DNA of 59,491 nucleotides, filler included, from Dimargaris cristalligena (taxonomy: Eukaryota): NCBI GenBank assembly GCA_003614675.1. It is 6 parts of 6 records of this genome, joined end to end, with 100 filler letters (N's around TTAATTAATTAA, not from the genome) between each part and the next. Parts side by side here need not be neighbours in the genome. Positions count along the whole stretch, not along the records: positions 1 to 9,877 come from ML003222.1; 5 more parts are not named here. One strand, 5' to 3'. The notes under the pieces were generated by a model that worked only from the letters and a program-made list of their open reading frames with translations, made no database searches and was not told the DNA's origin. This document shows, piece after piece, positions 1 through 49,926 of the stretch. How positions within the stretch are numbered: position 1 is the first letter of the stretch; the number at the start of each line of letters is the position of its first letter. Both the position numbers and the translations under genes were made by a program.

Positions 1-96
1 AGGGGTAGGGGCTCATTCACTCATCAGGGGTGTACTTCTGATAAGTGCAAAAAATAGATAAAAAAATAAAGGTAGGTAAAAATGTGGTAAGTTTAC

Positions 97-290
97 CACA
101 CCCCCTTGTACTAGCTAGTAAGTGTGCTTACTGCACTTTCCTTGCATATACCTGTACTTATCCTTTATTGGTTAGTACTATGCCTCATCCTAATACTAGT
201 AGCCCACTTGGCTGAGTCTAAGCCCCACCTACCATTAGAATCCTATCCTCAGGACTCTTGATAGACTAAGAGTGGTTAACCCAGGGGACA
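97..290 (+). mobile_element. Solo-LTR family 1, copy A (3' fragment only)
   Basis: Aligns by eye to the last ~190 bp of the copies at 3786-4368, 4583-5142 and 20616-21201 (e.g. CTAAGCCCCACCTACCATTAGAA, CCTATCCTCAGGACTCTTGAT). Ends ...CCAGGGGACA at 290. No CpG. Confidence 0.8.
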
Positions 291-800
291 GACTTCATAG
301 CAAAAAACCCCTTAGAGTGCCCCATTTGTCACAAAAAATTCAAGTACCATTCCAAGTGTAAACAGCATTTCACAAAACACACTGGTGAGAAACCCTATAT
401 CTGTAATAAATGTAATGAGTCATTTCAATATAGTTCAAGGTTGTTTAAACATATAACATTGGAACACCCTCAGAGTACCCCTGCCAGTGCCAACAGTGGT
501 CAGGAATTAGGTAAACCATCTCATTATAATGTTGGCTTAAATTGGCACATTGTCGATTTGAAATCACATAAGGCCAAATTGAAATCGAAACTGAAATTAC
601 CCAAGCTTAAAAGACCCTTTGTCTGTAACATTTGCATTCAGATATTCTATCACCATGGAGACTTCCAATGCCATTTAAAAACTCACACCAAGGGGAAGCT
701 CTTTACTTGTCCTACATGCAAAAAATCATTCTCTTGCAGCTTTACCCTTAAGCGCCACACTAATACACTTCACCCACAAAACCCCATCACCATCGACTGA
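291..800 (+). pseudogene. C2H2 zinc-finger gene (4 fingers), 5'-truncated by LTR, probable pseudogene
   Basis: Open frame from 291 reads DFIAKNPLECPICHKKFKYHSKCKQHFTKHTGEKPYICNKCNESFQYSSRLFKHITLEH, then RPFVCNIC...HLKTH and FTCPTC...HTNTLH, with a canonical TGEKPY linker. No ATG; the frame abuts the LTR end at 290 and has an in-frame TAA at 267-269. Confidence 0.75.
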
Positions 801-3424: not shown

Positions 3425-3785
3425 AACCGCCGACCCCATAAAGAGAAGGTCCCAGGAATCCCTTATTTCTTGACAGCAGCTCGACCAATCTAGCAATGAC
3501 CATTTCGCGGGTATTCATTTAATAAGCCGTGCTAGGGGTCAGTATACTCCAATGCATCTACTGTGTCTATTTTCCAGCTTTATTATATTCTGCTTCTTAA
3601 TATACCCGTCTCATTAGAATGCATCTAATCATAGGCATCTTATATATTTATGTATCCCTGTGAGTCCGCAATTCATCACTTGAACCTTAGAATCACTCAT
3701 GTCTGTTCCCACCTGGTGACTGCTTTACCAATAAATTGACCTATATGTATTAAAAGATAGTCAATTTTTTTGTTTATGGGTTATG

Positions 3786-4368
3786 TGTTACCTAGGTCAA
3801 CCACCCTTAGTCCATCAAGAGTCCTGAGGATAGGCTTCTAATGATAGGTGGGGCTTAGACTCAGCCAAATGGGCTACTAGCATCAGGTACAGGTGTGGTA
3901 CTAACTAATAAAGGTGAAGTGTAGGATATAGGCAAGGGATGTGCAGTGGGCATACTTACTAGTTAGTACAAGGGGGAGTGAGCATATATAGAGTTTATTG
4001 GGGTAAATTAGGGGGTAAGAATAAGCTAAGGAATCTAACCAGCACTAATGGGGCCTGGTTATATATACACAGGGACAACTCTAGAGGGAGATCCCAAGGA
4101 AAGGATACTACTAAGACTAAGGTATAGATAAATGGGCTGACTGGATAGTCACAGGTATACAGAAGACTGAAGGTAACTGGAAGAGTCTTTTGATCAGCAC
4201 TTGAGTAGTTAGTGTAAAAAAGCAGAGTCTGAAAGGGGAAGGGTTATATGATAGATGATAATCCCACAGCACTGAGGGTGACTATGGGAAGGTTAATATA
4301 GTGCTATAAGGCCTAATATGGTCAGATGCCTAAGCTGGAAGGATTAAGATGGATTAGATGGTCTGACA
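3786..4368 (-). mobile_element. Solo-LTR family 1, copy B (full length, 583 bp)
   Basis: On the minus strand begins TGTCAGACCATCTAATCC and ends ...CCTAGGTAACA (TG...CA). Contains a TATATATAA box and AATAAA. Homologous over its length to 4583-5142 and 20616-21201. No clear target-site duplication. Confidence 0.8.
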
Positions 4369-4582
4369 TAGAGCTTAACCTAGTTAATATTTTTTCCCTA
4401 CTTATCTTTATATCTTCAGTTATATCTCACTTTTTCTCCTGCCCTACCCAACCTACTCAGTTTTAATATAATTTACAATACCATATAGCTAGGTTAAAGT
4501 TTACCCATATACTTAGAATGACTGTGATTAGTAGGGTTCTTCACAATCAAGACATGCTATTTTATTACTTTTTGTAGTAATG

Positions 4583-5142
4583 TGTTAGACCATCTAATCC
4601 TCCTTAATCTAGATACCTTAGTATCCATCCTTATTAGGCCTTATAGCACTATATTAACCTTCCTATGGTCACCCCTGGTACTATAGGATCATCCTATATT
4701 GTATAACCCTTCCCCTTTTGGACTCCACCCTTTTGCACTAACTACTCAAGTACTAATCCAAAGTCTCTTCCAGTTACCCTCAGAGTCTTCTGGATACTTA
4801 TAGCCATCTGGTTGGCCTAATTATCTATTGTATAGTCTTAGTAGTATTATCCCCTTGGGACCTCCCTCTGGAGTTGTCCCCATATATATTTAACTAGGCC
4901 CCATTAGGACTGGTTAGACTCCTTTGCTTATTCTTACCCCTCAGTTTACCCCAATAAACTCTATATATGCTCACTCCCCTTTGTACCAACTAGTAAGTGT
5001 ACCCACTGCATGTCCCTTGCACATCATCATATTTAGCTTTTATTAGTTAGTACCCATGCCCCATACCTGATGCTAGTAGCCTGCTTGGCTGAGCCCAAGC
5101 CTCACCTACTATTAGAAGCCTATCCTCAGGACTCTTAATGGA
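4583..5142 (+). mobile_element. Solo-LTR family 1, copy C (lacks the last ~25 bp)
   Basis: Starts TGTTAGACCATCTAATCC; reverse-complement homologue of 3786-4368; similarity stops after GGACTCTTAATGGA. Confidence 0.8.
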
Positions 5143-6950
5143 TGTAGAAAATGAATTACTAAAACCTTATATTATGTTTAGTACCAGTTGCCTCTTCCAT
5201 AGCCTCAGATAGGTTAATATATTCTACCTTAGCAGTAGATGTAATTACCAATGGTTGTTTCTTAGGTAGATAAGATACAAGACCACCAGGTAGGAGAACT
5301 AGATAGCTACTAGTTGATTTTATATTAATAATATCATTGAAAGAATCACTATTACAGAAGCCAGTTAAACCTGCATTGTTTTCCGTGAAAGGAATTGTAT
5401 GACCTTAGGTATCCCTGAGGGTGTAACATGAAATTATGATGGCAGTAAGCCAGTGAGGAATAGTAAGCTTAGTATTAGAAGAACTGGTTTTGTAGGCAGG
5501 TTGTTTAATATTAGGTCTAGTACAGTTATACAAATATGGTGGAAATTTTAATTATCTTTAGCAGTGCACTGTCATTGAGAGAGTCAGTGGCTTTAAAATG
5601 CCTATTGGGTTACCAACTTTTATATTTATCAGCAATAAGGACCTTGATTCCGTTAGATTGATGTATTTTCTTAGAACCAAAGCCAGCTGGGATGGCTTGT
5701 TTTGGTAAAGGTTTACATATAGCTAACATATTTTCTATAAAATGAATATATATATATAAAGTTTATCATTGGGATATCCTGAATAAATTAATACTCTAGC
5801 CAGTGTGCTTATAAGCCTATTGGCTACTTGCTGTCCTCAAACAGTCCGTCATTGGATGACCATCAACCATTTCTCTTTCCGCATATGGGCCTCTGCATCG
5901 TGTTCTTCAAATGTAGGCCAGAGCAACCCCGCCGACACACCCTTCAATACAAAGATAATAGTTGCTTAGTTGTAGAAATTGATTCGTGAGCATACATTCG
6001 GATTAAATCTCGGAATTGATAGGAATCACATAAACCATGTCCCGATGATGAAAGCAGGGGTGCGTAATATAGGTCAAGGCGAACTTTATCAGCTCATGAT
6101 AACTGGACCTAACCAGTTTACTTGTATGGCTGATGAATAATCTTTCGTTTACTGCCCGCGGACCTTCTCCCCAGGGACTGGAGGAATGACATGGGTGAAA
6201 TTCGGCCCAGCTGTATAAGGTTTTAAATAATAAGCGTATGGGATAATGTATGGGAGATTTATTTTTAACCAGTAATATTTGCTTCATCTAATGGATTTTT
6301 CGTTATACAGCTCGGTTGAACCTCTCCCACATTGAGTTTGAGTTTGTCGTAATAATGGTGTGATCAAGGGTGGTTTTGGTACAATATATCGACCGATACG
6401 TTAAGGGATGCAACCCTTCCATACCAATGGACAGTGTGATATGCTGACAAACGCAATTGGGCAAGGATATCCTCAATTAGTAATCCATGGTGGATTAAAT
6501 TAATACACCGGCTCAAATTATTCCCACATTATATGGTCTACCAACTGTGACAGTTGTGAATATCTTGGGTGAAGACAGCTCTCTGGCTAAGCCGGCTTAG
6601 TGTATTTCGCTTTCTATAAAAGCCCCGCCCAAGTCACCTCCTTCTGTCCCAAACTATCCTACTAGCTTATTCAGCCATTGCCCAACTCTGCATATATTTG
6701 ACCCCCGTTTTATAGAACCTCAAACAGTGACTGTGGGCAGTTTCTTTCCTACCTTCTTTCTACCTTCCCTGTTCACCATTCGACAGCCTCTGAGAAGCTT
6801 TAAGTAGTCCCACTTGGTCTCCTCTTGCCACAATACTTCAGTGCCTGCCACTCCGCTCCAAGAAAGTATTACCTCCCTCATTCCCGTTCTCAACACCAGC
6901 TCTCCCTCTTTCTCTCTTGTTATTTTTTAGAACTCGTACCGTCTCTGACC

Positions 6951-8508
6951 ATGCCTCTAGCCAACACTGCCGAATCCACAGGGAAGTCTGAGGTTGGTGT
7001 TGGTGCCCCAGCGCCTCATAGCCATAATGTCCAAGCTGCGACCGCTGACCCTCGTACATACGTCCAACTTCAGAACCCACCCTCAGGAACTGCCATTAAG
7101 CCTACCCAGGGCGCAATTGACCAGGGCTTTGCTGTCATGGGCAAGGACGGCGATAACCTGCCCAAGCTCTTTACCCCTCTCCAATTAGGTGGGCTCACTC
7201 TGCGCAATCGTATCATGGTATCACCAATGTAAGTTCTGCTATACGTGGACTCTATTAAAGCTCGCCTGGAGGTTATATTGCTTCAGCTCGGTGCCACCAT
7301 TTGACTATCAGGGACCACACCATTACTGGAGACTCTGGAACCCTGAACAATATGGCAAGTACTCGTCAGTTGAAATCCCACCTTCAATGATTTTAATAAG
7401 CTAACTATTATTTTGGATCCATGCTCCCGCTTTCTATTATGCCTATAGGTGCCAATATTCCTGCGAGGATGGCTTTGTCACTGACTGGCACCTTGTTCAT
7501 CTAGGTGGCTTTGCTGTTCGCGGCCCTAGCTTGATCATGACTGAGGCAACTGCTGTTCTTCCCAATGGCCGTATCAGTCCCTACTGCGCCGGTCTTTGGA
7601 AAGATGAGCATATTGTCCCTTGGCAGCGCATTGTCCAGTTCGCTCACTCACAAGGTACTCCCATGGGCATCCAACTAGCGCACGCCGGTCGAAAGGCTTC
7701 CACTTTCCCCATTTTCTTCCCGGATGCCCGGGAAGCTGCCCAACCTCAACAAGGGGGTTGGACCGACGGAACCGGTAGTAGTGATGATACAGTGTGGGGA
7801 CCCTCGGATGATCCCTGGGGACCGGAGGGATACCCCCAGCCCCATACTATGACCTTAAACCAGATCCAGGAAGTCAAGCGGGCCTTCCGGGATGCTGCAG
7901 TGCGGGCCGATAAGGCCGGTTTTGACCTGATTGAGATCCATGCAGCCCACGGATATTTGCTCAATTCGTTCCTATCCCCACTTTCCAACCACCGCACCGA
8001 CCAATACGGGGGTAGTTTTGAAAACCGTATTCGTCTGCTGCTGGAAACGATCGAGGAAGTACGGTCTGTGTGGTCCAATGAGAAACCCTTGTTGGTGCGT
8101 GTGTCCGCCACCGACTGGGTGGAAGGTGAGGGCTGGGATAGCAAGCAAACCGTTCAACTGGCCCAACACTTGGCTGAAATCGATTCCGTGGACCTACTCG
8201 ACATTTCCACTGGTGGTAATTCCTCGCGCCAGAAAATCCCTGCTGCACCCCTCTTCCAGGTCCCCTTTTCGGCCCAGGTCAAAAAAACGGTGCCCACTTC
8301 CAAACTACTGACCGGTACTGTAGGTCTTATTACCAAGGGCCAGGAGGCGGAGGACATTCTGCAGAAGGAAGAGGCGGATTTAATCATCCTGGCCCGGCCG
8401 TTCCTGCGGGACCCCGGCTGGGTCTTGAAGGCCGCCCAGGAATTGGGAGTGTACGTTAAGTGGCCCCAGCAATACGAGCGGGCCCGTCCCAAGCTCCACC
8501 GTCTGTAA
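6951..8508 (+). CDS. NADH:flavin oxidoreductase / Old Yellow Enzyme, YqjM/NamA-like; exons 6951-7228 and 7449-8508
   Basis: Motifs KLFTPLQLGGLTLRNRIMVSPM|CQYS, GIQLAHAGRKAS, IEIHAAHGYLLNSFLSPLSNHRTDQYGGSFENR, LARPFLRDP. Intron GTAAGT 7229 ... GCTAAC ... TAG 7448 restores SPMCQYS. Confidence 0.93.
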
Positions 8509-9640
8509 TATTTGGCTTCTACTCAATTTACAAGTTTTACCCTGGTTTTTTTTTACACAGGCCGATCTTTTTGGAAACTGAATAATATATGAGCGATATA
8601 TAAATATTATCTAGATGCCAATCTAGCACCTATCCCTGGTTAAAATTGGCAATATATAATATTCGGTAGTTTTATCCTCTTATTATCGCTAAGGAATGCG
8701 GTAATAAATATGGGTGTGATGATACAAAACATTGCCCTTTAAACTAATTCAGTACCTCGTTGAACTGGAGTTACTCACATATTAGGCCGAGCTCCACTCT
8801 AAACTACCCCCCTAGAGTTGATCAAGCTGCTAGTTATTAAATAGTGGCGAACATAAATATGTGTCAAATACAGCAAAAAATACGAGCACCTCACATCATA
8901 CTGCTGTTCCTGCAATTAAAGGAGTGTAGGTAATACATATCTCCAGTCGCATGGTTTCCTGTGTAGACGGGCAATATGGATGGCACTGTTTTCTTATAAA
9001 AACATCTAATCGCCAATGTGCACCAGAGAAAATAGTGACAGGAAATCACATCGCTGTACGTTCCTGCAAGAATCGCTCGCCCATTCAACAAACCAATGCG
9101 ATAGGCAAATAGTACGATAATTATGTCGTGGTTCGCTAAATAATAGTAAAAATAGGAAAATCTAGGAAAATAGATGCCTTTGAAAATAAGTTGCAAGAAA
9201 AAATCGGTTGTGGTATATCTACCGCCTTGATTTAAAATGCCTTCAATTAGTCTAAGAATGTGAAAACGCAATGCTCGTCCAATTAAGGGGTAATGTGAAA
9301 CCTCCTGGGGGTTGCAAATATTTATCGTATTAGTTAAACATCATAATATATGGCTGTTGTGATATAGCCAAATGGCTATAGTAGTATTTGACATTGTCCT
9401 ATTTATTTTTACTCTTTTAATTGAAAACCACCATCCATATTTAGGTGATTAGTCAAAGAATTGGCACTGCTAGCCTAAGTTTTCCCTTTTTATAGATGTT
9501 ATTATCATACAACGTTTATATATTTATTGTTGATTGGATCATTTCCCCGAGTATTACATTTATACCCTTGTTGTACTCTTTCAACAAGTATTAGCTATTC
9601 CCTTAAACCTATTATAAGTTCATTTATATCTTTTATATCT

Positions 9641-9877
9641 TTGTTTTGGTTATACCAACGGGTATAACTTTAGCCCTAACCAATTATTAGTTTGAGTATC
9701 TTTTTAATGCTGCTGTTTTTGTTATACCAATGGGTATAATTATTTTCATCTATCCAATTATTATTTTGAAGATCCCTTTGTCACTATTGTTTTGATAATA
9801 CCAACAAATGGTTTACCATATATAACCAATGATATAATTCAAAGACCCTTGTCTTTCCTTTTGTTTTGGTTATACAT
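9641..9877. repeat. Degenerate tandem array, period 72-74 bp, each unit starting TGTTTT(G/T)GTTATACC with a hairpin; runs off the contig end
   Basis: GTTATACC-AACG-GGTATAAC at 9649-9668; GTTATACC-AATG-GGTATAAT at 9721-9740; degenerate unit near 9794-9817; truncated unit at 9861-9877. Confidence 0.65.
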
Positions 9878-9977
9878 NNNNNNNNNNNNNNNNNNNNNNN
9901 NNNNNNNNNNNNNNNNNNNNNTTAATTAATTAANNNNNNNNNNNNNNNNNNNNNNNNNNNNNNNNNNNNNNNNNNNN
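9878..9977. other. Artificial contig linker
   Basis: 44 N + TTAATTAATTAA (stops in all six frames) + 44 N. Confidence 0.98.
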
Positions 9978-11881: not shown

Positions 11882-13693
11882 TTACGCCACGGAAATAGAT
11901 GCGGGGACTGGCACTTCCCGGTGACGGCCGTCTAGTTCAATATTGGGCTTCGGGTTATTCGCGAGGTACCGAGCCAACATTTGGTTGAGGGGCAAGATGG
12001 ATTCGAAGTCGAGTTTAATCGCCACCAAATGATCGCCCCCAAGGGCCACGAAGTCGGTGGTTAGAATGGGGTAAATTGCCTGATCATCCAGGGGTTCCCA
12101 TACACCTGTAGCTGACCGAACCTCGATTTTACCCAGGTACTTTTGCCAAAAATTGAATTCGATCCGGATCCCGGCGAACTGGACGAAACAGTTGGATTTG
12201 ACGTTATCCACGGGGTTAACTTGGGTCACGGCCGCGATCATAATATTGCGCAGGTCGGCCCCGGGTAGTTCGAGACGGACCAGACTATTGGCGTTGGGGA
12301 AAACCATCAGGACGTGGCCGAGATTCACCGGACCGTGGGTCAGACCCGAGCGCATCACGTCACTGTTGATAAGGGCAATATAGGGCCGGGCGTTGCGCGA
12401 AGGAGAAAGAGAAGAAGACGGATCGTCCCGGGCGCTGTACAGCATGGCTTCGGTGACTAAATTACCGAGCCGACATTCACCCACCTTGCAGTCCATTTGC
12501 GGCATGTCCACGTTCAGTTCAGCCAGGTACTGGTTGGCCAACGTATCAATGGGCCTCCGGATGTGGCGGATAAAGTCCTGCATGGCCTGGTCCGGGGTGA
12601 TGTTTTGGGTCATGTGGATGGACTGGCCGCTCAGCCAGTTGATGGCCCCTGAGTCGGAGTCGAGGGTTAGGTCCAGGTAGCCCACGTATTCGCCGAACTT
12701 CTTGGTCTGGACTACATACACGGGGTGGCCCAACCGGTCGTAGACCGTGGTCGGGTAGGGACCGCGGGCCTGGGGTTGATCGGGGTCGTTGGCCAAGTAG
12801 GTGTGACTGTGGCCACCGAAGATAATCTGCAGACCCTGGGTGGACTGGGCGATAAGTTGGTCAATGCGGTATCCGCTGTGACTGATGGCCACGATGGTCT
12901 TGACTCCCACAGACTGGAGATAATCAATCTGTTTCTGGACGGCCACGACGGGATCCGTAATCGTAATCGAACTTAGGCCCTCCCCGAGCGATAGGGATTT
13001 GATATTGGTGGTGGTAAAACCCACCACCCCCAGATTATACTTCTTGATAATCACGTAGGGGTACACTAAGTCGTGTAGGGGCGATTCCGGGGGGAACTCA
13101 ATGTTGGAACAAACAACGGGGAAATCCAGTTGGTTGAAAAAAGCGGCCAGAGCGTCGATGCCATTGTCAAACTCGTGGTTGCCGATGGTCATGAAGGAAT
13201 AGGCCAGCACGTTCATAATGTGGGCCGTCGCAAGACCGGTGTAATAATTATGGATGAGGTGGCCCTGGAAGGCGTCCCCGGCATCCACCAACAATGTATC
13301 AGGATGGCCCGCGCGAAGCATATCCACAATGGTGCGACGCCGGGCGGCGCCCCCGAAACAGGCCTGGGCCGAGCGGTCAAAGTCGGTACAATCGGCTCCC
13401 ACGTAATTGAATTCGTCTTCGTGCGCGTGAATGTCGTTGGTGATAATAATCCGCAGCTTTACGCCCTCTTGGTAGATATCCTGGTACGCCGTTTGGTGTA
13501 GGTTGTGGAAGCGAACGGGGCCCGATAGCTCCCCGGAATGCGCATTGTCGCTGTCGTAAATGAAGTTCTGGTAGGGTCCCATGGGTGCGATTAGACCCGG
13601 CATCATGCCCGTGGCTTTGGCATGAACCGCCATCTCCGGTCCGCGCGTGGCGAGGAGCACCATAATGGAACTAATAACATATCCCTGTCGCAT
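11882..13693 (-). CDS. Secreted 5'-nucleotidase/apyrase family metallophosphoesterase (603 aa), paralog 1
   Basis: Signal-like N-terminus; metal motifs TNDIHAH, DAGDAFQG, GNHEFD, SHSG, GGHSH; C-terminal 5'-nucleotidase domain (ECRLGNLVTEAM, IALINS). Confidence 0.9.
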   Translation of the reverse strand: MRQGYVISSIMVLLATRGPEMAVHAKATGMMPGLIAPMGPYQNFIYDSDNAHSGELSGPVRFHNLHQTAYQDIYQEGVKLRIIITNDIHAHEDEFNYVGADCTDFDRSAQACFGGAARRRTIVDMLRAGHPDTLLVDAGDAFQGHLIHNYYTGLATAHIMNVLAYSFMTIGNHEFDNGIDALAAFFNQLDFPVVCSNIEFPPESPLHDLVYPYVIIKKYNLGVVGFTTTNIKSLSLGEGLSSITITDPVVAVQKQIDYLQSVGVKTIVAISHSGYRIDQLIAQSTQGLQIIFGGHSHTYLANDPDQPQARGPYPTTVYDRLGHPVYVVQTKKFGEYVGYLDLTLDSDSGAINWLSGQSIHMTQNITPDQAMQDFIRHIRRPIDTLANQYLAELNVDMPQMDCKVGECRLGNLVTEAMLYSARDDPSSSLSPSRNARPYIALINSDVMRSGLTHGPVNLGHVLMVFPNANSLVRLELPGADLRNIMIAAVTQVNPVDNVKSNCFVQFAGIRIEFNFWQKYLGKIEVRSATGVWEPLDDQAIYPILTTDFVALGGDHLVAIKLDFESILPLNQMLARYLANNPKPNIELDGRHREVPVPASISVA

Positions 13694-16600
13694 TCTTGGA
13701 ATTAATTAATGGAGGGGGGGGGGAGTGGGGGAGAATAAAACTGACCGAAAAATGTCGAGAAGTGGTACAGCAAATTATAAGAGAAACGATGATGAATAGA
13801 CGGGAATATCGGAAGTAATTATTAACGAAGACCTCGATTTGACCGAGGTTTAGTGACTTGCGAAAATCTCTAAAATACCCGGTAGTCTGCGGTTAGAATT
13901 GGTCTAGCTTTCGGTTAATTTCGGGTAGAAACGATACTCTAGATTACCCAATGGCTAGGGAAAAGCTATAAAATAAAAAAACGATTGAATACAATTAACC
14001 CAGTACACTTGTTCAACTCAAATGATAAGCATGTAAATAAAGATCTAAATTAACTTGGTAGTAATATTGGGTGTTCCCGTTAAGGAAGTCGAATCAAGGG
14101 TTCGGCGGGGATAGTGTCCCATTTATAGTTGAGGAATCGCTGTGGACAGGGGGGGAGAAGGTGGCCGACGGACTATAATACAGTTAGGGCATTACCCAAT
14201 GATGGTGCAGGGTTTGTCAGACGACTGTTCGATACTACTATCTCTTCTTTTCTTTTTTTCATAAAGAAGACGAGAATGTCGTATACAGAGATGATACGTG
14301 CATTGGCGGGCTAAAATGGTGGAAAAGGAGAGAAAAGGACATGATCTATACTTTCCCCAACCCCGCCGGCTGCCCTTTACATATATCCTCCTCCCCCGTT
14401 TCTTATGGCCGCCTGAATGATTGGCTCGTCGGGAGTTTTTGTACTCCCGTCACCTGGTCACCTTCCTCTTGCATGTACAAGCACGATAGGGAGGTGTCCT
14501 TTTCACCCCCCCCCTCCATACCCTACCCCTATAACCCGTCCAGCTATGTCCATGCATTGCCAACCCTTCCTGTCCCCCCCTCAAGTACCCCGGCCTAATC
14601 CCTGAGGATTAGCTAGATCCCCCTGCAGTGGCTGGCAGGTTAATAAAGCAGACCTTTAGTTTGGTAGAGATGACCAGGCTACTAGATCAATGGGAAAGTA
14701 GACCAGTCTGGGCGTGGGTGGTCAAAGGAATGAGGCTTAAACTTGTGTATAATGGTCGCAGGAAGAGTGGAGTAGGCGGTTGTTTGGCTATCGCAAATGT
14801 CGCATAAAGTCCTCCAATGGCTTATTAGGGGCTTTGGGGCAAAAGGAAATATAAGTTCACCCCATATTCCCCTCTATTGGCCAGAACTCCCTTGTACAGT
14901 TTTTGAAACACAGGTAACACACCCTTCATTTCGCCTGTAAGCGCCCTCTGCTGGATAAGCTGGTGTTCAAAATATACGATCAGCTGCACAGATTTTAAAA
15001 ATAAATCATTGGAATTGCTAGGTGAGCAAGGGAGAAAGAGATATATAATAAGAGGAGTGAAAGGAAGAAAAATAGTCAGAGCTATCCTCCCACACTCCTC
15101 GCCTTTTTTGTGGCGTACCACCCAACCCTTTACATTGCCATGTACGACCCACCCGGACAGGGCAAGGCGGAGCAGGTGCCGTGTCCCTGTCCCTGCCTCT
15201 TTCCTAGGAACGAGTGCCATTTTTCGATCAATACATTTAAAATGGAGGAGGGGAGGGCAGTGTCATAAAAAGTAAATGAATAACGGACGTCTTCCATATT
15301 CGGTATAGGAATATCCGACACTCATAATTACCCATTTAATTGATTGAAAACGACGATTCGCGCTGTGGGGTCTACTATATACGTAAGAGTCACGGAATTG
15401 TAATATATATATATTTTTGGCTGTACATTTGTGAAGGAATTCAATAAGCACCTATCCCCAATGCATCCTTCCGCCCATACTAGCAAACTGGCCTCTACCG
15501 CCCCTCCAATCGTAGAAGTCGTACGATGGGTTGCACGGAGCGAGAGTAATCACCTCCGAAAAAAAGTCCACGGGACTTGTCCACGATTGGTAAAGCCTCT
15601 GCTGCTGACTATTTCGATATGGCCCAGGTTCAATAAGTCCGAACCATTGGTCGCCTAATAGAGGGAGACCCTGCACTCTTTAGCTAGACTAGGCAAAGAG
15701 CAGGAGAATGGCGAGGAGTACACCACTGGTGTGGCCGTCGTGACCTGAAACGCGTGGCCAGCGAATGGCTGGCTGATCGGCACTAACGGAAAGGGTCACA
15801 AAGCAGGTGTATAGACGAGTTTAGACGAACCAATTATCCGCTGCGGGATGGTTGGACCGGCGGAGTCTCGTACTCAGCCGATACCGTCCTATTCCCCTAT
15901 CAAAAAAATAGGTGGTATATACTTGAATGAAGCGGTTAAAGCAAAAAAAAAGGGGGGAATGAAGTAAATAATCAAAACCGGTGGCCCACGAGTCCGCTGT
16001 TTCATGGATGAGACCAAAAGCATTAAAGAGTCGTATGGATCGATGAGAGAAGGGGAATTAGAGAGGGTTATTAAGCCGAACTCTTCGACGTATGGGTAGC
16101 ACAGTACCGCCTCTAATGAATTCCACTAGGCATATCGTTTATCCAGCCACGGCCATCTGTTCATGCCCATGATCCGAGTGCCATAGGTTTTCCTAAAAAA
16201 TATACACATCACAATAGATCATCACAACCAGCATCCGGCATGATATCCAAAACCCACATATAAGTACATTCCCGTTGGAAGACATCCCCGCCGGGTACTA
16301 TAGCCTACTATGGTTGCCCATTTACTACTATTAGGTCAATGAAATTTCACTTCCGGAACTTGGGATTAGTCCGCTTACACTCAAAAATAGCTAAATCCCC
16401 CAACCCGCTTATAAAGTTTTTGGAACTAGGCAGCTGACAAGTTCGTAATTTTCCCAACACCTTCCAACACCCTTGAAATGTCGCGGCCTGTACGACCGGT
16501 GAAATACCCTTGGCTTGCGATGATGAGTCCTAGTCATGGGTGCTAGGGGTCTACAATGCCGCCGCCCCTTACCTACCTACCCATGGAACGGTTACTCGGC

Positions 16601-17717: not shown

Positions 17718-19541
17718 TTACTCGGGTGGGTCGACAGTGACCATCCGCCCATCGAGCTGGGGGTTTAATTCGGAGCCTTCCAACTGACTATAGAGCAACT
17801 GCACAATATCAGTGATATGCTGGTACTTGGTCAATTTGGGTACCACAACGTGATCGTTGCCCTTGGCCACGTACTCCAAGGTGACCACGGAGTATACCTT
17901 ATCTTCCTGGATCGGAATCCAGCCGGGGTAGGGACTGTCCGAGGAACTAGGGGGGTCGCTCGGACCCGCGCGTACGTAAAGGCGGTGCAGGTATTTGCGC
18001 TCGAAATTGAAGTCCATTTTTAGGCCGGCGAACTGGGCAAAACAAGTGACCCAGACCTGGTCCACGGGACTGCGTTCGCGCACCGAACCGGTGATACTAT
18101 CGAGGATATGGCGGCCGGTCATGTACGCCTGGACTACGGGATCCCGGAAGGGGAAAACGGCCAACAGGTTGGACAGGGTTAGGGGACCCTGACGCAGGCC
18201 TTGGCGCATCCCGTCGCTATTGATGAGCGCGATTTGGGTGGATAAGTGGCGCGTGGCGGCCAACATGGCGTTTGTGACCCAGTTAGCAAGCTGGCATTCG
18301 CCGCGTTTGCACGGCGCTTGGGGCATATCTAAGGGAACGTGGGCCAGGACAGACCCACCGGCAGCCTGGATGGGCTTATTGAGGTGTTCTACAAAGGCCT
18401 TCATAGCTGCGTCTTCGGGGACGTTGGAGGACAGGTGAATCGGTTGGCCGCTGAGCCACGTAATCTGCCCCAGTTCGGGGTTGAGCGTCAGGTCCAGGAA
18501 ACCCACGTATTCGCCCCACATTTTCGCCTGGACCACGTAAGCGGGCCGGCCGTCGAGGTCATACACGGTGGTGGGAAAAGCGCCCCGGGCGCTGGGGTCG
18601 TCGGGGTCGTTACTCAAGTAGGAATGGCTGTGGCCACCGAAAATAAGCGTAATGCCCCGGGTTTTGCGAATCAGACGCTGTTCGGTTTTGTAGCCGCAGT
18701 GGCTGAGTACGAAAATGGTGGTAATGCCCTGGCCGCGCAGCCGGTCAATCTCGGCTTGGACCGCCGGAACGGGGTCGATAAACTCTACTTGACCGGTCCC
18801 TTGGGAGATGGACTGGGTGTTGACTGTGGTGATGCCCAAAATAGCGATATTGTACTGTTCCAGAATCAAACTGCGCTTCACAATACGGTACAGCTCGGGT
18901 TCGCCGGCGAGGTTCAGGTTGGTACATACCACGGGGATTTTAAGCTGCTTGTAGAACTTCACCAAGTGGTCCACCTTATCGTCGAATTCGTGGTTGCCAA
19001 TCGTGACGGCCGTATACCCCAGGATTTGCATAATCGGGATGGATGCATTACCCCGGTAGTAGTTGTAGAATGGGTCGCCCTGGAAGATATCGCCGCTGTC
19101 GAATTTCAGGACATTGGGATGACCCCGCTCCAATAAGTCGAAGATGTATTTGCGGCGAGCCGCTCCGCCCCGACACTCTTCCCGTTGCACGTCGGTGTAA
19201 CTGCAGTGGGCCCCAACCGGATTGAAGGGCATCTCGTGGGAGTGGATATCGTTGGTAAATATGAGCCGGAGTTCAATGTCGCTGGTTGGTTTCGGGGTAT
19301 ACCGGCCACCGTGTTGATGGTGGAATTGGGTACCGGCCCGGAGGCCAGACTCACTGGAAGCGTGGAAATCGTATTGCAGCTGGTGGTGGTGGGGGAGGGA
19401 CTGGGGCTGGGGCTGGAGGAAGTCCGTACTCCGCTTGATTAGACTGGATGTAAGGAAGTCCGACTGGGCCACGCCGTTGACTAGCAGGGGGAACCCAGCG
19501 CCGAGCAGACCGCAAAGCAAAATTCCTACTTTGGAAAACAT
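17718..19541 (-). CDS. Secreted 5'-nucleotidase/apyrase family metallophosphoesterase (607 aa), paralog 2
   Basis: Signal peptide, LIKR dibasic site, motifs TNDIHSH, DSGDIFQG, GNHEFD, SHCG, GGHSH; collinear with paralog 1. Confidence 0.9.
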   Translation of the reverse strand: MFSKVGILLCGLLGAGFPLLVNGVAQSDFLTSSLIKRSTDFLQPQPQSLPHHHQLQYDFHASSESGLRAGTQFHHQHGGRYTPKPTSDIELRLIFTNDIHSHEMPFNPVGAHCSYTDVQREECRGGAARRKYIFDLLERGHPNVLKFDSGDIFQGDPFYNYYRGNASIPIMQILGYTAVTIGNHEFDDKVDHLVKFYKQLKIPVVCTNLNLAGEPELYRIVKRSLILEQYNIAILGITTVNTQSISQGTGQVEFIDPVPAVQAEIDRLRGQGITTIFVLSHCGYKTEQRLIRKTRGITLIFGGHSHSYLSNDPDDPSARGAFPTTVYDLDGRPAYVVQAKMWGEYVGFLDLTLNPELGQITWLSGQPIHLSSNVPEDAAMKAFVEHLNKPIQAAGGSVLAHVPLDMPQAPCKRGECQLANWVTNAMLAATRHLSTQIALINSDGMRQGLRQGPLTLSNLLAVFPFRDPVVQAYMTGRHILDSITGSVRERSPVDQVWVTCFAQFAGLKMDFNFERKYLHRLYVRAGPSDPPSSSDSPYPGWIPIQEDKVYSVVTLEYVAKGNDHVVVPKLTKYQHITDIVQLLYSQLEGSELNPQLDGRMVTVDPPE

Positions 19542-19851
19542 GGTCGGCTGATGGTGATTCCGTTATATATATATAAACACTGGGTATCGCCAGTGACGGA
19601 TAACTGGTCGTAAATAAGGGAGTTTGATGTGCTCGGGTGCCAGAGCTGTCCAGCTAGATTGGGGTCCGGAAATAGGGTTGTATTGCTTAAGGTTCGCTGC
19701 ACTCGTTCGACTTGGTCCAGTAGAGCCGAGATTACGGGCTGGAACGGAAGGGAAGTGAAGAAAAAAATACAGTACGGGATATACCGATAAAGTAGGGGTA
19801 GGGGTATTAGGGCCGGAGATGGCCTTTGTTACAAGGTGGAACCAACGGTCT

Positions 19852-19951
19852 NNNNNNNNNNNNNNNNNNNNNNNNNNNNNNNNNNNNNNNNNNNNTTAAT
19901 TAATTAANNNNNNNNNNNNNNNNNNNNNNNNNNNNNNNNNNNNNNNNNNNN
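19852..19951. other. Artificial contig linker
   Basis: 44 N + TTAATTAATTAA + 44 N. Confidence 0.98.
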
Positions 19952-20368
19952 TCCCCCCTTCCTCCTTGAACCAACCATACCACCGGGAATATAAGCCTCA
20001 TAGGGCTAGGCTCTGACTTAAGCAGGACTGGTGCGGCCATTACATACTTTGAATAAAAGGACATGGCACTTGTGCGACTTAGGAGTGGTGCCTGGGGCTT
20101 CGTGGTTGAACAATTTCTAGGGCGTGCCTCACATGAGGGCCGGGAGCCTGCTATTAAGCCCGTCACTGGTAGTTAGTGTCTATATCCACTTGAATGGGGC
20201 CACTGACTGTTATTGACATGCAGTTTGTTTCATTTTCCAGGTTAGTGCTGGATAAATTTTTGTGGGCTGTACATCCCAACTACCTCAGTAATAGACAGGA
20301 CTGCAAAAAGCCCCCTAAGTATTGCTTAACACTAGTTTAATATCCAACATTTATTTGGATACCTGCTC
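19952..20368 (+). repeat. Repeat family 2, left copy at the contig-3 start (inverted relative to 29386-29807)
   Basis: 19952-20102 is identical to the reverse complement of the last 151 bp of the contig; similarity continues inward with many C>T/G>A differences. Confidence 0.88.
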
Positions 20369-20615
20369 ATGTGTCAGATATATGGTACCCATCATATTGC
20401 AATAGTCCACCCAGCTAATAACAGGGTTAGTATAACACGTAGCAGAATGGGAAGATGCACCCTCATTGGTTATTTTCAGAACTAATGGTCCCTACCTCCC
20501 ATAGTTCTGGGTAGTTTCTATATTATTACTATGTTATAAACCATTTATACTCTATCCCATTTGATTCCTATTATTACATAATATTATAAAACCATTATTT
20601 ACTAGGATTTACCTT

Positions 20616-21201
20616 TGTCAGACCATCTAATCCACCTTAATCCAGCTGGCTTAGATGTCCAACCATATTAGGCCTTATAGCACCATATTAACTTTACCAT
20701 GGTCCTCCCTGGTACTATGGGAGTATCCTATATTAAATAACCCTTTCCCTACTAGACTCCATCTCTTCATATTAATTACTTAAGTACTAATCTAAAGACT
20801 CTTCCAGTTACAATTAGAGTCTTCTAGATACCTATGGCCATTCAGTTAGCCTAATTATCTATACCTTAGTCTTAGTAGTATCCTTCCTTTTGGACCCCCC
20901 TCTAGGGTTATCCCTATATATATATAACTAGGCCCCATTAGGACCAGTTAGATGCTTCAACTTATTCTTATCCCTTAGTTTATCCCAATAGATTCTATAT
21001 ATACTCACTCCCCCTTGTATTAACTAGTAAGTGTGCTTATGGCAGGTCCCTTACCTATCCCCACTACTTAGCCTTTTTTGGTTAGTACCATACCCCATAC
21101 CTAATGCTAGTAACCTGCTTAGCTAAGCCTAAGCCCCACCTACTATTGGAAGCCTATCCTTGGTACTCTTGATGGACCAAAAGTAGTTAACCTGGGTGAT
21201 A
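20616..21201 (+). mobile_element. Solo-LTR family 1, copy D (full length, 586 bp)
   Basis: Begins TGTCAGACCATCTAATCC and ends ...CCTGGGTGATA (terminal CA apparently mutated to TA); full-length homology to copies B and C. Confidence 0.8.
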
Positions 21202-22993
21202 AGCCATATAGGATATCTAAATGTAATATAGTAGTCAGTATGATATGGGTTATAAATCCAAATGCTGTATACTGAGACATGGATCTACCATTATCTAGTC
21301 AGAGTAAGTGCACTGTATCCGAATTTTCTCTAAGAACCAATACAGCTATAATAGTATACTGCACTCAACAAAAGCATAGATCATCTATAACATCATATGA
21401 ATTCTGTCAACTTGCTTATTGCACACCATAATTTGGGTGTTCATGGCTACCCCCTGACCCCGTTTGTACCCTACACTGGGCTTTATTACTACTTAGTGCA
21501 CTTCCCATGGCAATAACTAATGCCACAATGGTCAACTATTTCATCCTACCACCATCAAAGGGGATTAATCACCCAGAACCAGAGTGGTCAACTGACCCCC
21601 CACAGCAAGTGTACACTGCCAAGTGGAGAGCAAACAGTAATAAACCTTACTATCAATACCAGTATACCCGGATAATAAAATAAGGAATAGCCCATGTTAT
21701 CACAGGTCTGTTATGTTCTAATAAAATAATCTTATATATCACAAAAAAAACCCCACACCCAACTCGGTACACCTAAATACATTGGCCCCCCTCGACCCAA
21801 ATGCAACTATCCCAGCTGAAACCCGATGCAATCCTTCATTGTGCCTTAAATTTGACCCAATGCTTTTTCTGGATACTACCAGATGCCTTATGATGATTTC
21901 ATGACTATTCTTGGACAACGCTTCAGTAGTATCCCCACACAGGAAAACTCGCCCAGGCAATAGCCTGCTATTCCATAGTATATTTCTGCATGGTATATCC
22001 CAATAAATTATTATGTTCAATTCCGGCTAGTTCAAGATACTCCTATTCCCATATAGATATCATTTTTGCTTTCCCCTTTTGATAGGCACCATTCACGCTA
22101 ACTTCCGATCTTGTATTCTCAGGATACCTATCTACGTGGGCCTTGATTCGGCATTAGAATGGCTAACCACTTCATCGATACTGGCAAGTACATTTCTCTA
22201 TCATTCTACTGGGCTCTATCCTGTTCAGATATGTTATAACTATATCTATCATTTTTATGAGAATCCAGGTCTCTTCATTATATTGTTAGCCGCTTAAGTA
22301 CTATCAATATCTAGCCTCATTATACTGGCTGGTCTTTGGTCATTAATTTTTTACTATGTTGATATAGAGTATTTGACCGGTTGCCACTCGGGCTACCTAA
22401 TACGGATGCAATGACAAAACTGGTTTTGATTTCCCGTACCAATTTCATACCTGAAATACTAAGCGCAAGAGCTAATATTGAACACCCTTGAATTATTTGC
22501 AACTACTTCAAGGACAGTTATTGCATTTTCAAATAGTCGTTTTCCTAGCGAGTTACATCATATTGACATTTATTAATTGCCAACGACAAAAATTATAAAA
22601 ATTAAAGTAGAACTACGAAAACAAAGAGCCAGTAATAGGAGGAATAAAAAATCATGAAAATGGTAAATAAATATCTCGATATAAACATAAGAGTAATATA
22701 ATCATTATTGTTCGGGTACTTGAATGTACTATATTTTGTTAACCAAAATGCGCATTAGAGTATGCGTGAAGAATGCCTATTAGTCTATAGGCTCATTAGA
22801 CGCCCACCAATGGTTATAGTTTAACTTGGGGCTATAAACGTATTCCGGGTATCTGTGCCATTATTTTCATTTGATTGAAACTAATAAGTGGGCAATGTAA
22901 CTTTTAGATCGATAGGTGTGTATCTGTTAAGATATCTGTGCTGCACACTATGATTTAGTTTTACGCCAATGATATCGCCTAAGCCACTGGGCT

Positions 22994-23968
22994 TCAAGCC
23001 GAAGAGGCACACGGGACTGTGGTTGAAGTCGGAGTTACAGTGGGGGTGACGGTGGGAGTAACGGTGGGTGTAGTAGTGCAGGGAACTTTGGTTGAAGTCG
23101 GGGTTACGGTAGGGGCCACGGTGGGCGTTGTAATGTAGGGAACATTGGTTGACGTCGAAATTTTCGTGGAAGTAGTGGTAGGCTTATCATCGTCGCAGGG
23201 GGTTTTGGTAGCTGACGGCTTGGAGGTCTTGGTGGACTTGTCGTCATCGCAGGGGGTAGTTTTCGAAGGCTTATGGCTCGTGGTGTGGTCGGGGCGAGGG
23301 GTTTTTGTAGGCTTGTCGTCGTCGCAGGGAGCCTTGGTGCTCGACGGCTTGGGGGTCTTTGTAGGCTTGTCATCATCACAGGGAGTGGTCTTCGAAGGCT
23401 TATGGCTCGTGGTGTGGTCGGGGCGAGGGGTCTTCGTGGGTTTATCGTCGTCGCAGGGAGTCTTGGTGCTCGACGGCTTAGGTGTCTTTGTAGGCTTGTC
23501 ATCATCACAGGGAGTGGTCTTCGAAGGCTTATGGCTCGTGGTGTGGTCGGGGCGAGGGGTCTTCGTGGGTTTATCGTCGTCGCAGGGAGTCTTGGTGCTC
23601 GACGGCTTAGGTGTCTTTGTAGGCTTGTCATCATCACAGGGAGTGGTCTTCGAAGGCTTATGGCTCGTGGTGTGGTCGGGGCGAGGGGTCTTCGTGGGTT
23701 TATCATCGTCGCAGGGGGTGGTCTTCGAAGGCTTGTGGCTCGTGGTGTGATGGACGCTGGGGGTCTTGGTGGGCTTGTCGTCGTCGCATGGCTCACTTGG
23801 TTTGGCCGGAGTATGAGTGGGGCGTGGGGTTTGCCGGGAGATGGGATTGCTATTTTCATCACAGTCTTTATCTACTCCACTTCGTCTAATCACGCGGTGT
23901 TCGTTTACGTGGGCCAAGGCGGTGCTCAGGGCCAAAGTGGCGATGGTAATAATGTAGGCAACCTTCAT
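22994..23968 (-). CDS. Secreted Thr/Pro/Lys/Asp-rich tandem-repeat protein (324 aa from MKVAY), mucin/cell-wall-like
   Basis: Signal peptide MKVAYIITIATLALSTALA, HRVIRR dibasic site, 10 PCDDDK repeats, Thr-rich tail; TATA box at 24138-24145. Confidence 0.85.
   Translation of the reverse strand: MKVAYIITIATLALSTALAHVNEHRVIRRSGVDKDCDENSNPISRQTPRPTHTPAKPSEPCDDDKPTKTPSVHHTTSHKPSKTTPCDDDKPTKTPRPDHTTSHKPSKTTPCDDDKPTKTPKPSSTKTPCDDDKPTKTPRPDHTTSHKPSKTTPCDDDKPTKTPKPSSTKTPCDDDKPTKTPRPDHTTSHKPSKTTPCDDDKPTKTPKPSSTKAPCDDDKPTKTPRPDHTTSHKPSKTTPCDDDKSTKTSKPSATKTPCDDDKPTTTSTKISTSTNVPYITTPTVAPTVTPTSTKVPCTTTPTVTPTVTPTVTPTSTTVPCASSA
23175..23793 (-). repeat. Coding minisatellite: alternating 75-bp and 54-bp units forming a 129-bp higher-order repeat
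   Basis: Units encode PCDDDKPTKTPRPDHTTSHKPSKTT (25 aa) and PCDDDKPTKTPKPSSTKT (18 aa); central copies are near-identical at DNA level. Confidence 0.9.
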
Positions 23969-28821: not shown

Positions 28822-29385
28822 GGCGAAGCGATAGGCGCGTGGCTGGGTAAGTGGCGGGGTAATGAGGCGAAGAAGAAGGGGGTAGAGCAAAAATAGTAGC
28901 AGTAAAGTGTTGAAAAGCAGTGGCGAAAGGAGTCAACGAGGAGCGGAGACCAAATAGACTTTGTGACAGGGGAAGGAGCGGATGTGGCAAAAATAGGAGG
29001 GGGAGGCCAGGTCTTTTGGAACCGACACAATGGGAAGCCGTTTGAAGATGGTAGAGAGCCAGTATGGATACAGGCAGTTGGCAGAAACACCAGCGAAAAT
29101 TCGCGTAAGGAGGAAGGAAGTGGTGGGGGGCCTGAGAACGGGGTAGGAGTGTGGGAGGATATAGTTTAGGGGGATTTAAGGTTAGGCAAAACGTAGTGAA
29201 AAAGAAGCATATGAGACAAGGCACCGCAGGCGCGTTGGAATAGGGAGGTCATTATATACAATAGGGTTTCTATGGTAAAGGCAGCGGTGTCTTAATAAAG
29301 GTCAAAGAACCCAGTGCATCGCGGCGGTAATTACAAGGGTGCATTGTGGGGTACACTAACATCTATTCTTAGATCTGTGCAGTGC

Positions 29386-29807
29386 GGGCAGGCATTCAAG
29401 TGTGTGGTATAATAAACTAGTGGAAAGTGACACCTGGGGGGCTTTTTGCAGCCCAGTCTTGTACCGGGGCGGTTGGGCTGTACAGCTCATCAAAATTCAC
29501 TCGGCACCAACCTAGACAATAGATCAAACTGCGCGTAAATAATAACCAGTAGTCAATGGTCCAACTTGAGTGAATGTAGGCATCTCACTGCCGACGACGG
29601 ATTTAATAGCAGGCTCCCGGCCTCATGCGAGGCACGCCCTAGAAATTATTCAACCGCGAAGCCCCAGGCACCACTCCTAAGTCGCACAAGTGCCATGTCC
29701 TTTTATTCAAAGTATGTAATGGCCGCACCAGTCCTGCTTAAGTCAGAGCCTAGCCCTATGAGGCTTATATTCCCGGTGGTATGGTTGGTTCAAGGAGGAA
29801 GGGGGGA
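29386..29807 (-). repeat. Repeat family 2, right copy at the contig-3 end (CpG-retaining copy)
   Basis: Reverse complement of 19952-20368; keeps CG dinucleotides that the left copy has lost. Confidence 0.88.
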
Positions 29808-29907
29808 NNNNNNNNNNNNNNNNNNNNNNNNNNNNNNNNNNNNNNNNNNNNTTAATTAATTAANNNNNNNNNNNNNNNNNNNNNNNNNNNNNNNNNNNNN
29901 NNNNNNN
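29808..29907. other. Artificial contig linker
   Basis: 44 N + TTAATTAATTAA + 44 N. Confidence 0.98.
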
Positions 29908-39749: not shown

Positions 39750-39849
39750 NNNNNNNNNNNNNNNNNNNNNNNNNNNNNNNNNNNNNNNNNNNNTTAATTA
39801 ATTAANNNNNNNNNNNNNNNNNNNNNNNNNNNNNNNNNNNNNNNNNNNN
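39750..39849. other. Artificial contig linker
   Basis: 44 N + TTAATTAATTAA + 44 N. Confidence 0.98.
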
Positions 39850-39913
39850 TAGAGGAAGGTCCTGAGGAAAAGATACCACTAAATTAAGGTATGGATAAAT
39901 AGGGTCTTTTAGT

Positions 39914-49680: not shown

Positions 49681-49780
49681 NNNNNNNNNNNNNNNNNNNN
49701 NNNNNNNNNNNNNNNNNNNNNNNNTTAATTAATTAANNNNNNNNNNNNNNNNNNNNNNNNNNNNNNNNNNNNNNNNNNNN
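49681..49780. other. Artificial contig linker
   Basis: 44 N + TTAATTAATTAA + 44 N. Confidence 0.98.
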
Positions 49781-49926
49781 CAAAACTCTCAGGTGGCGAC
49801 TTAGTGGCCAGCCAAGAGACGGATAAATAAAGGTGCACTAACTGTAACAATCCACCGGATTGGCCCCCTATTTAATACAATTTATGATGTGGACATTTAT
49901 TGGTAGGAGTATGTAGCAAAAAAATG
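49781..49926 (+). repeat. Repeat family 3, left copy at the contig-6 start (inverted relative to 59345-59491)
   Basis: AAAACTCTCAGGTGGCGACTTAGTGGCCAGCCAA...GGATAAATAAAGGTGCACTAACTGTAACAATCCACCGGATTGGCCCC matches the reverse complement of the window end. Confidence 0.88.

Follow-up and report, generated by a model that had tools for sequence, protein, structure and literature searches.

CpG-free domains with CpA-context transitions around an LTR-like repeat in Dimargaris cristalligena, a probable footprint of cytosine methylation

Context-dependent cytosine-to-thymine (C>T) mutation of transposable elements (TEs) is known from fungi in several forms. Repeat-induced point mutation (RIP) that prefers CpA has been documented among Pezizomycotina, while Pucciniomycotina show a TpCpG variant (Horns et al. 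2012, PMC3318451). Mitotic C>T mutation at CA in the methylated TEs of Zymoseptoria tritici is promoted by Dim2 (Moeller et al. 2021, PMC8016269). Decay of methylated CpG in TEs is a further known process, with Rhizophagus irregularis, whose TEs carry CG methylation (PMC8647823), and basidiomycetes as examples. RIP-like mutational defence is now regarded as restricted to ascomycetes, apart from the TpCpG variant in relatives of the rusts and smuts, and early-diverging fungi are described as using little 5-methylcytosine (5mC). In this study, we analyzed a window of 59,491 bases from the genome of Dimargaris cristalligena, in which diverged copies of a repeat resembling a long terminal repeat (LTR) lie in domains free of CpG and show frequent exchanges among CA, TG and TA. 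The reading we favour, with a probability of roughly 0.55, is that old transposon copies here mark the centre of a domain of cytosine methylation, the CpA component of which is Dim2-like. The window is not a single locus: it consists of six assembly contigs in order of falling length (9,877 nt for the first, 9,711 nt for the last) with N44-TTAATTAATTAA-N44 linkers between them (9878-9977, 19852-19951, 29808-29907, 39750-39849 and 49681-49780), and distances between features on different pieces are meaningless.

Three stretches of the window are devoid of CpG, over 1716 nt (3668-5383), 881 nt (20439-21319) and 553 nt (1-553); measured from CG to CG, the gaps are 1717 nt (3667 to 5384), 882 nt (20438 to 21320) and 554 nt (0 to 554). 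The observed/expected (O/E) ratio of CpG is 0.85 in the remainder of the window and about 0.6-1.3 in genic 500-nt windows. From the base composition and this background, 55, 25 and 18 CpGs would be expected in the three stretches, and the probabilities of finding none are 1e-24, 2e-11 and 1e-8, respectively. The list of CG gaps bears out the initial annotation, which had recorded by eye an absence of CG over 3669-5383 and 20440-21319 and CG-rich genes elsewhere. All of these stretches centre on copies of a single repeat of about 600 nt, and the depletion is limited to the TE copies and the DNA adjoining them, leaving genes unaffected, as decay of methylated CpG would. The domains are as follows.

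3668..5383, no strand: CpG-free domain around copies B and C, including the single-copy flank 5143-5383; 0 CpG against 55 expected
20162..21319, no strand: CpG-poor domain around copy D; 1 CpG in 1158 nt, O/E 0.03
1..553, no strand: CpG-free domain around copy A; in its flank 286-554, CA+TG O/E 1.46 and TA O/E 0.79

The repeat is represented by the following copies, together with the spacer between two of them.

97..285, plus strand: LTR-like copy A, the 3' 189 nt only, near the contig start; no CpG; 84.7% identical to B and 79.5% to C by blastn; TA O/E 1.67
3790..4389, minus strand: LTR-like copy B, full length of about 600 nt; no CpG; TA O/E 1.46, CA+TG 0.97
4390..4582, no strand: spacer of 193 nt separating B from C, whose 5' ends face each other; no CpG
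4583..5142, plus strand: LTR-like copy C, without the last 25 nt of the element; no CpG; TA O/E 1.56, CA+TG 0.89
20596..21197, plus strand: LTR-like copy D, the most TpA-rich, with TA at 33 of 61 variable pyrimidine-purine (YR) sites; no CpG; TA O/E 1.64, CA+TG 0.68
39850..39903, minus strand: 54-nt fragment of the repeat at the start of the fifth contig; 81.8% identity over 55 nt by blastn; next CpG at 39933

As copies B and C stand head to head 193 nt apart, the span 3786-5142 singled out by the initial annotation corresponds to this pair. The unit has TGTCAG...GGTAACA ends over about 600 nt and looks like a solo LTR. It is named only LTR-like here for three reasons: no internal retroelement coding region was found among the window's 24 stop-to-stop open reading frames (ORFs) of at least 180 aa (14 of them scanned with Pfam), no target-site duplications were found by eye around B and D, and B and D remain similar for about 25 nt upstream of TGTCAG. 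The three long copies are equidistant, 78-79% alike (B and C identical at 459 of 586 positions, B and D at 463 of 587, C and D at 459 of 588), and the GC content of the copies is 0.39-0.44. A metagenome scan with 18 nt that B, C and D have in common produced 0 matches. An ORF with C2H2 zinc-finger motifs (270-800) begins inside the end of copy A; its region has zero CpG up to 554 and is CpG-poor (O/E 0.28) up to 1000, and the gene may therefore sit partly within the CpG-depleted domain.

The mutation spectrum was counted over about 590 aligned columns of three to four copies of this one family. Transitions outnumber transversions in every pair among B, C and D (87-98 against 26-42), and the whole alignment contains 135 biallelic transition columns and 37 transversion columns. 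No CG remains in it, and 61 dinucleotide sites vary only within {CA, TG, TA}: TA/TG at 26 sites, CA/TA at 18, all three dinucleotides at 9 and CA/TG at 8. The 17 sites that carry CA and TG in different copies are as expected from independent decay of an ancestral CpG. The other 44, at which TA alternates with CA or TG, require a further step beyond CpG decay. The examples of CA/TG/TA swaps that had first drawn attention to the family are all present, among them CCTAAT/CCTGAT, GCCCAC/GCCTGC, CTCAGG/CTTGGT and, at one site, CCCAGG/CCTAGG/CCTGGG.

Context was scored at C/T (or G/A) columns with an invariant neighbour. In the CpA-type context, 46 positions are polymorphic and 10 carry an invariant C, compared with 13 and 39 for CpC and 17 and 51 for CpT; where the neighbour is itself A/G-polymorphic, there are 34 polymorphic positions and 0 with an invariant C. 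If C>T is assumed, the CpA-type fraction (46/56) stands against 30/120 for CpC and CpT together (Fisher p = 7e-13), and a direction-free test, in which pyrimidine-A positions are compared with the rest, gives 46/142 against 30/195 (32% vs 15%, p = 3e-4). CpA-type positions are more often polymorphic than CpC and CpT positions, and the excess is far beyond chance, but it is drawn from the roughly 590 columns of four copies. The two strands behave alike: C/T with a 3' A is polymorphic at 20 positions and invariant at 8, G/A with a 5' T at 26 and 2, and CA/TA and TG/TA patterns occupy 18 and 26 sites (p = 0.29). The family therefore shows what is expected of canonical RIP on this point, namely transitions concentrated at CpA on both strands of repeat DNA.

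Strand symmetry also bears on a different origin of the swaps, in which copies were edited during retrotransposition, by cytidine deamination of cDNA or by adenosine deamination of RNA (UA>UG), and the edits became fixed in new copies. The element is LTR-like, with TGT...ACA ends, a length of about 600 nt and solo copies, and UA is a known context of adenosine editing. However, editing is expected to be strand-specific, and the even counts above therefore rule out strand-specific editing of RNA or cDNA; loss of CpG in unique flanks and in a neighbouring repeat would also go unexplained. We consider editing very improbable.

The direction of the CpA change was approached through composition. 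In the pooled LTR-like copies, the O/E of TA is 1.54 and that of CA+TG 0.82, compared with 0.98 and 1.00 for the remaining window sequence, and by the ratio of the TA O/E to the CA+TG O/E the LTR windows take ranks 1 to 3 of 285. Among the copies, invariant CA+TG number 10 and invariant AC+GT, of the same base make-up, number 35. Copy D has TA where copy B has CA or TG at 27 sites, with the reverse at 11 (p = 0.014), while the CpC and CpT differences between these two copies are even (17 vs 13). A GC-maximised reconstruction of the element has a GC content of 0.53 and 18 CpGs and in this resembles the genes. The excess of CpA/TpG-to-TpA differences that had been proposed alongside CpG loss is hence present and strand-symmetric. 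These values also resemble the Dim2-type pattern of C>T at CA in TEs with CA/TG lowered and TA raised, the methylation being here a supposition.

These measures have to be set against the possibility that methylated CpG decay alone is special and that the CA/TG/TA swaps reflect ordinary context rates, a TA-rich ancestor or subfamily structure. The direction-free excess is just about two-fold, polarisation by majority is symmetric, the family-wide allele shares described below could mark subfamilies, and only about 590 columns were analysed. A CpG-rich tandem array used as a control is likewise highest at CpA-type sites (6/15 vs 8/34, not significant). Nevertheless, by our own calculation, CpG decay by itself would give a ratio of TA-only patterns to CA+TG mixtures of about 0.2, compared with the observed 44 to 17; the deficit of invariant CA/TG relative to AC/GT, the TA O/E of 1.46-1.67, which is the extreme of the window, and the asymmetry between B and D, which is specific to YR sites, point the same way. 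We regard CpG decay alone as quite unlikely. The CpA part is real in the LTR-like family and has several candidate causes.

The extent of the CpG loss distinguishes further among the explanations. In two flanks (286-554 and 3667-3789), CpG O/E is 0 and 0.28, CA+TG is 1.46-1.47 and TA is 0.78-0.79; as CA/TG is raised there and TA is not, pure CpG>TpG/CpA decay is indicated. The flank 5143-5383 is single-copy, being covered by one contig at single-copy depth in each of three sequencing runs (X1, X4 and X5), and has zero CpG. The reciprocal gain of TpG/CpA is seen in flanks, in a second repeat family and at the 17 LTR sites with both dinucleotides. Inside the LTR-like copies CA+TG is not raised (0.82), and an extra CpA>TpA step is therefore needed. 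The second repeat family and two control repeats are listed below.

19952..20380, plus strand: second repeat family, copy adjoining LTR-like copy D; CpGs of the inner part lost
29380..29807, minus strand: second repeat family, partner copy far from any LTR-like copy; keeps 14 CpG, inner part O/E 0.74
6189..6328, no strand: control, multi-copy element resembling a miniature inverted-repeat transposable element (MITE) and ending in terminal inverted repeats; CpG O/E 0.91; not present at this locus in run X5
23178..23693, no strand: control, four CpG-rich 129-nt tandem units; CpG O/E 1.08, no context-specific hypermutation

The two copies of the second repeat are inverted copies at both ends of the third contig; their outer 150 nt are identical, probably through collapse at an assembly end. 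Identity amounts to 216 of 282 positions over alignment columns 140-432, a span that includes the diverged inner part. Relative to CG in the partner, the copy beside D shows CG>CA at 5 sites, CG>TG at 4 and CG>TA at 1, with 0 changes in reverse; all 10 of the compared CpGs beside D are gone. Since only the D-adjoining copy was stripped, CpG loss follows position and not homology. The MITE-like element (140 nt, 4 CpG, imperfect terminal inverted repeats of about 26 nt with ACAT on either side) has very high summed contig depth. In run X5, a contig passes straight from 6188 into 6329; isolates thus differ in the insertion, which is therefore young. In the tandem array, polymorphic sites number 6/15 at CpA-type, 5/19 at CpG-type and 8/34 at CpC+CpT positions, and 14 CpGs are invariant. 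This array (23049-23822) is probably a repetitive coding region: its four good units, identical at 109-123 of 129 positions, lie within long ORFs on both strands, are G-rich on the plus strand and differ at 21 transition and 3 transversion columns.

Taken together, these observations give only partial support to the repeat-targeted system that had been proposed for this locus, and argue against a homology-triggered, RIP-like form of it. CpG loss is regional and reaches single-copy flanks, and duplication as the trigger of the CpG part is contradicted by a second repeat of which one copy was stripped, a unique flank free of CpG and a tandem array left untouched; the multi-copy MITE-like element retains a CpG O/E of 0.91 and the array 1.08, and the species is scored 'no_rip' in a k-mer screen (Badet and Croll 2025). 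We conclude that regional methylation decay is the best account of the CpG part.

The broader proposal, a homology-dependent RIP-like system outside Ascomycota, holds that repeat copies above some length were sensed as duplicates and their CpG and CpA cytosines converted to T. The conversion may have taken place sexually or before meiosis, and the enzyme would be a deaminating, methyltransferase-like one with at most a distant relationship to RID. Several features suit it. CpA and CpG are preferred and both strands are affected; the gain of TpA with loss of CA/TG is strongest within the repeat unit, two unique flanks showing CpG decay only; the unequal intensity of copies B and D at YR sites, with even control contexts, suits episodic action; the short 140-nt MITE-like element is spared, like short repeats in Neurospora (PMC3318451); and the 78-79% identity of the copies is near the 80% limit that the same report cites for Neurospora RIP. 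Against it, besides the lack of a link between CpG loss and homology, transversions are not rare, the copies are simply old, and a GC content of 0.39-0.44 is not the extreme AT-richness of RIPped DNA. In five Zoopagomycota rows examined in a supplement table of Funabiki et al., from which this species is absent, DNMT1 is recorded in 4/5 and Dim2 in 2/5, whereas DNMT4/RID is 'ND' in all and DNMT5 is recorded in none; DNMT4/RID is said to be confined to Pezizomycotina, and Dim2-class enzymes are reported in early-diverging fungi. We therefore hold a homology-dependent RIP-like system to be unlikely, and a C>T hypermutation system of Dimargaris that works independently of RID, within repeat bodies only and on CpR (CpG and CpA), appears doubtful to much the same degree.

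The 'no_rip' score also calls for some qualification. Badet and Croll 2025 report repeat-enriched mutation signatures in Ascomycota only; for D. cristalligena, their supplement counts 4 k-mers with enrichment in non-coding DNA, compared with none for repeats. The screen used scaffolds >50 kb only and two-fold k-mer thresholds. Short LTR relics with a TA O/E of 1.5, in an assembly with an N50 near 24 kb, would not reach those thresholds.

The taxon and the dinucleotide pattern, with its symmetry between strands and its regional spread, are matters of direct observation; the mechanism behind the pattern may be outlined as follows. Old copies of an abundant LTR-like repeat would sit in small, heterochromatin-like cytosine-methylation domains spanning the element and about 100-450 nt on each side. 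Methylated CpG would have deaminated to TpG/CpA until none remained, in the element, in the unique flanks and in any other sequence within the domain. In the element body, CpA (TpG on the other strand) would in addition have undergone C>T change about five to six times more readily than CpC or CpT, so that around half of the CpA/TpG sites in each copy may now be TpA. The likeliest cause of the CpA component would be non-CG methylation, or a mutator linked to a DNMT1/Dim2-class methyltransferase at work in the transposon body. Such methylation-linked CpA decay is likelier than a homology-sensing RIP machine of the Neurospora type, and 5mC deamination at CG combined with methylation-linked mutagenesis at CA of the Zymoseptoria Dim2 kind fits the data at least as well as a repeat-targeted system.

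Each of the described systems shares part of this picture. Neurospora RIP, which is RID-dependent and found in Pezizomycotina, likewise changes C to T on both strands of repeats, prefers CpA, raises TpA at the expense of CpA/TpG and spares short repeats; unlike in RIP, CpG is here the most depleted dinucleotide, its loss is positional (flanks and neighbours) instead of homology-led, GC remains near 0.4, transversions are common, and the taxon belongs to Zoopagomycota. The Dim2-dependent process of Z. tritici (PMC8016269) also drives C>T at CA in TEs with CA/TG down and TA up, and needs no sexual cycle; there, however, CG is not highly mutated, whereas here all CpGs are gone. The TpCpG hypermutation of Pucciniomycotina (PMC3318451) resembles our case as a RIP-like excess of C>T in one sequence context, seen in the TE copies of fungi outside the ascomycetes by alignment to a consensus, with methylation as an unresolved alternative; its target is strictly TpCpG, while here any CpG (none being left to reveal a 5' base) and CpA are affected. 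With decay of methylated CpG in TEs, as in R. irregularis (PMC8647823) and basidiomycetes, the locus has in common CpG loss in TE copies and their shores, gain of CA/TG in the flanks and genes that keep their CpGs, but this decay by itself yields neither the TpA excess nor the CA/TG deficit of the LTR-like copies.

Several points weigh against a methylation domain with a Dim2-like CpA component. Polarisation by majority among three to four copies gives nearly equal numbers of C>T+G>A and T>C+A>G changes (B 20/24, C 18/15, D 29/15, A 6/4); near-symmetry is to be expected if about half of the CpA sites in each copy have mutated, although this reasoning is no proof. The direction CpA>TpA appears from composition and the asymmetry between B and D, with no outgroup, and if all changes are taken as T>C the contexts look alike (46/132, 13/41 and 17/64). 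The CpA effect was observed in only one repeat family of four copies; in the second repeat, CA/TG>TA changes number 8 against 4 in reverse, which is not significant. The flanks 5143-5384, 20438-20595 and 21198-21320 are TA-rich and blur the confinement of CpA decay to the element body. The composite RIP index, calibrated on Neurospora, is 0.46-1.34 in the LTR-like copies, yet 63 of 285 windows are above zero; we rejected Neurospora RIP indices as a marker, as they are unspecific in this genome. Because the Zymoseptoria Dim2 mutator spares CG and here CG is the most lost, two processes must be assumed. Finally, we infer the methylation itself, from sequence decay alone, as well as the enzymes and the timing.

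Sequencing runs allowed the family to be viewed beyond the window. In five runs from two studies, 81-92% of sampled words of contig 1 were recovered, compared with 18% in a sixth run from another organism, and the contigs of four runs (X1, X4, X5 and X6) were compared over window positions 4450-9877. The LTR part has a summed contig depth 100-500 times that of the single-copy flank, which is not a copy number, and a non-reference letter occurs at single LTR places in up to 93, 82 and 104 contigs (X1, X4 and X5, respectively). In two runs, the consensus of 34-44 loose contig ends is the same 3' end, ...GGTAACA. The LTR-like family is clearly large in the genome. Among the 22 LTR transition places listed (40 of 666 variable places being listed in all), 12 are CpA-type and 2 CpG-type. 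The listed CpA- and CpG-type places mostly have intermediate allele shares (0.15-0.95), and 5 of the 8 listed CpC/CpT places are near 0 or 1. These shares fit what recurrent CpA mutation over many copies would produce, in rows that were selected by the tool and that subfamilies could mimic.

Run X6, from the other organism, contains the same LTR-like family at about 80-90% likeness to 4583-5142, including tandem and inverted arrangements. Its coverage is limited to repeats (9 of 30 bins) and leaves out all unique DNA of contig 1, which suggests that the family is common to a relative or that the run contains a related fungus. In unique DNA, X5 differs from the window at 7 positions (1 CpA-type, 2 CpG-type, 3 other transitions and 1 transversion), which are too few for a spectrum. 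Where copy C ends (5136-5142), the X5 contig has 25 extra letters that match the 3' end of the family and include one CpG; the 3' end of copy C is thus a small deletion or insertion difference between isolates, and CpG loss is therefore not total in every isolate.

The same runs bear on whether collapsed repeats or chimeric contig ends produced false differences during assembly or amplification. The assembly is fragmented, two contigs have near-identical inverted ends (98% and 99%), and the second repeat pair is identical over its outer 150 nt while its inner part is 77% alike. On the other hand, the unique parts of contig 1 show 0 other letters in two runs and 2-5 differences in a third run from another study, and an artefact could not strip every CpG over 1.7 kb nor be context-specific. 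An artefact of this kind is barely credible.

The window's genes are eukaryotic, with introns. By ORF and Pfam analysis they include an old-yellow-enzyme type oxidoreductase, two 5'-nucleotidases, a SAM/RA-domain protein, a mitochondrial-type threonyl-tRNA synthetase, an Ariadne E3 ligase, an XPG/EXO1 N-terminus and a GT8 protein. The Ariadne-type ORF is 98% identical to an NCBI protein named Dimargaris cristalligena, and the mitochondrial threonyl-tRNA synthetase exon is most similar to those of Dimargaris xerosporica (63%) and Tieghemiomyces (60%), with Mucoromycota lower. Judged by these matches, the source is D. cristalligena or a very close relative (Zoopagomycota, Kickxellomycotina, Dimargaritales), so the early-diverging, non-ascomycete affiliation that had been suspected is upheld. 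The literature describes D. cristalligena as a mycoparasite. RIP signatures are stated in PMC8647823 to be absent from Gigaspora and Mucoromycotina. In our literature search, with bioRxiv supplements outside its scope, no paper turned up that describes a RIP-like signature, or one of CpG/CpA decay, for Zoopagomycota or Dimargaris. This agrees with the earlier remark that such a system is not established in early-diverging fungi.

We file the locus as an apparent case of methylation-linked C>T erosion of transposons, a known process, here in Zoopagomycota and with a CpA component. Clean CpG and CpA decay in a highly repeated family of a Dimargaritales mycoparasite indicates that cytosine-directed mutational erosion of transposons operates in Zoopagomycota, and the copies form a concrete set of loci on which non-CG methylation (Dim2-class) can be weighed against a homology-sensing process as the cause. 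If methylation decay alone were at work, the result would be a modest taxonomic extension of a known process. If a CpR hypermutation system were real, RIP-like defence would predate Dikarya or have arisen a further time, and a kingdom-wide screen would have missed the signal because it lies at the dinucleotide level in a fragmented assembly.

Some other repeats of the window were also noted. The inverted contig ends that are near-identical comprise 19952-20143 and 29616-29807 (98% over 293 nt including the linker), where identity falls to about 77% further inward, and 49782-49867 and 59405-59490 (99% over 86 nt); they look like a collapsed high-copy repeat appended to both ends, or young repeat copies. 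The 5'-nucleotidase/metallophosphoesterase paralogs, in tandem on the minus strand (11882-13705 and 17718-19562), are an old duplication, and were rejected as a duplicated non-TE control because their protein identity of 43% makes them too old to be of use. At its end, the first contig carries an AT-rich repeat (9337-9877, GC 0.29) of high summed depth with internal copies of a motif of about 20 nt (TTATACCAAYGGGTATAA-like), in which CpG O/E is 0.27 and CA+TG is 1.15.

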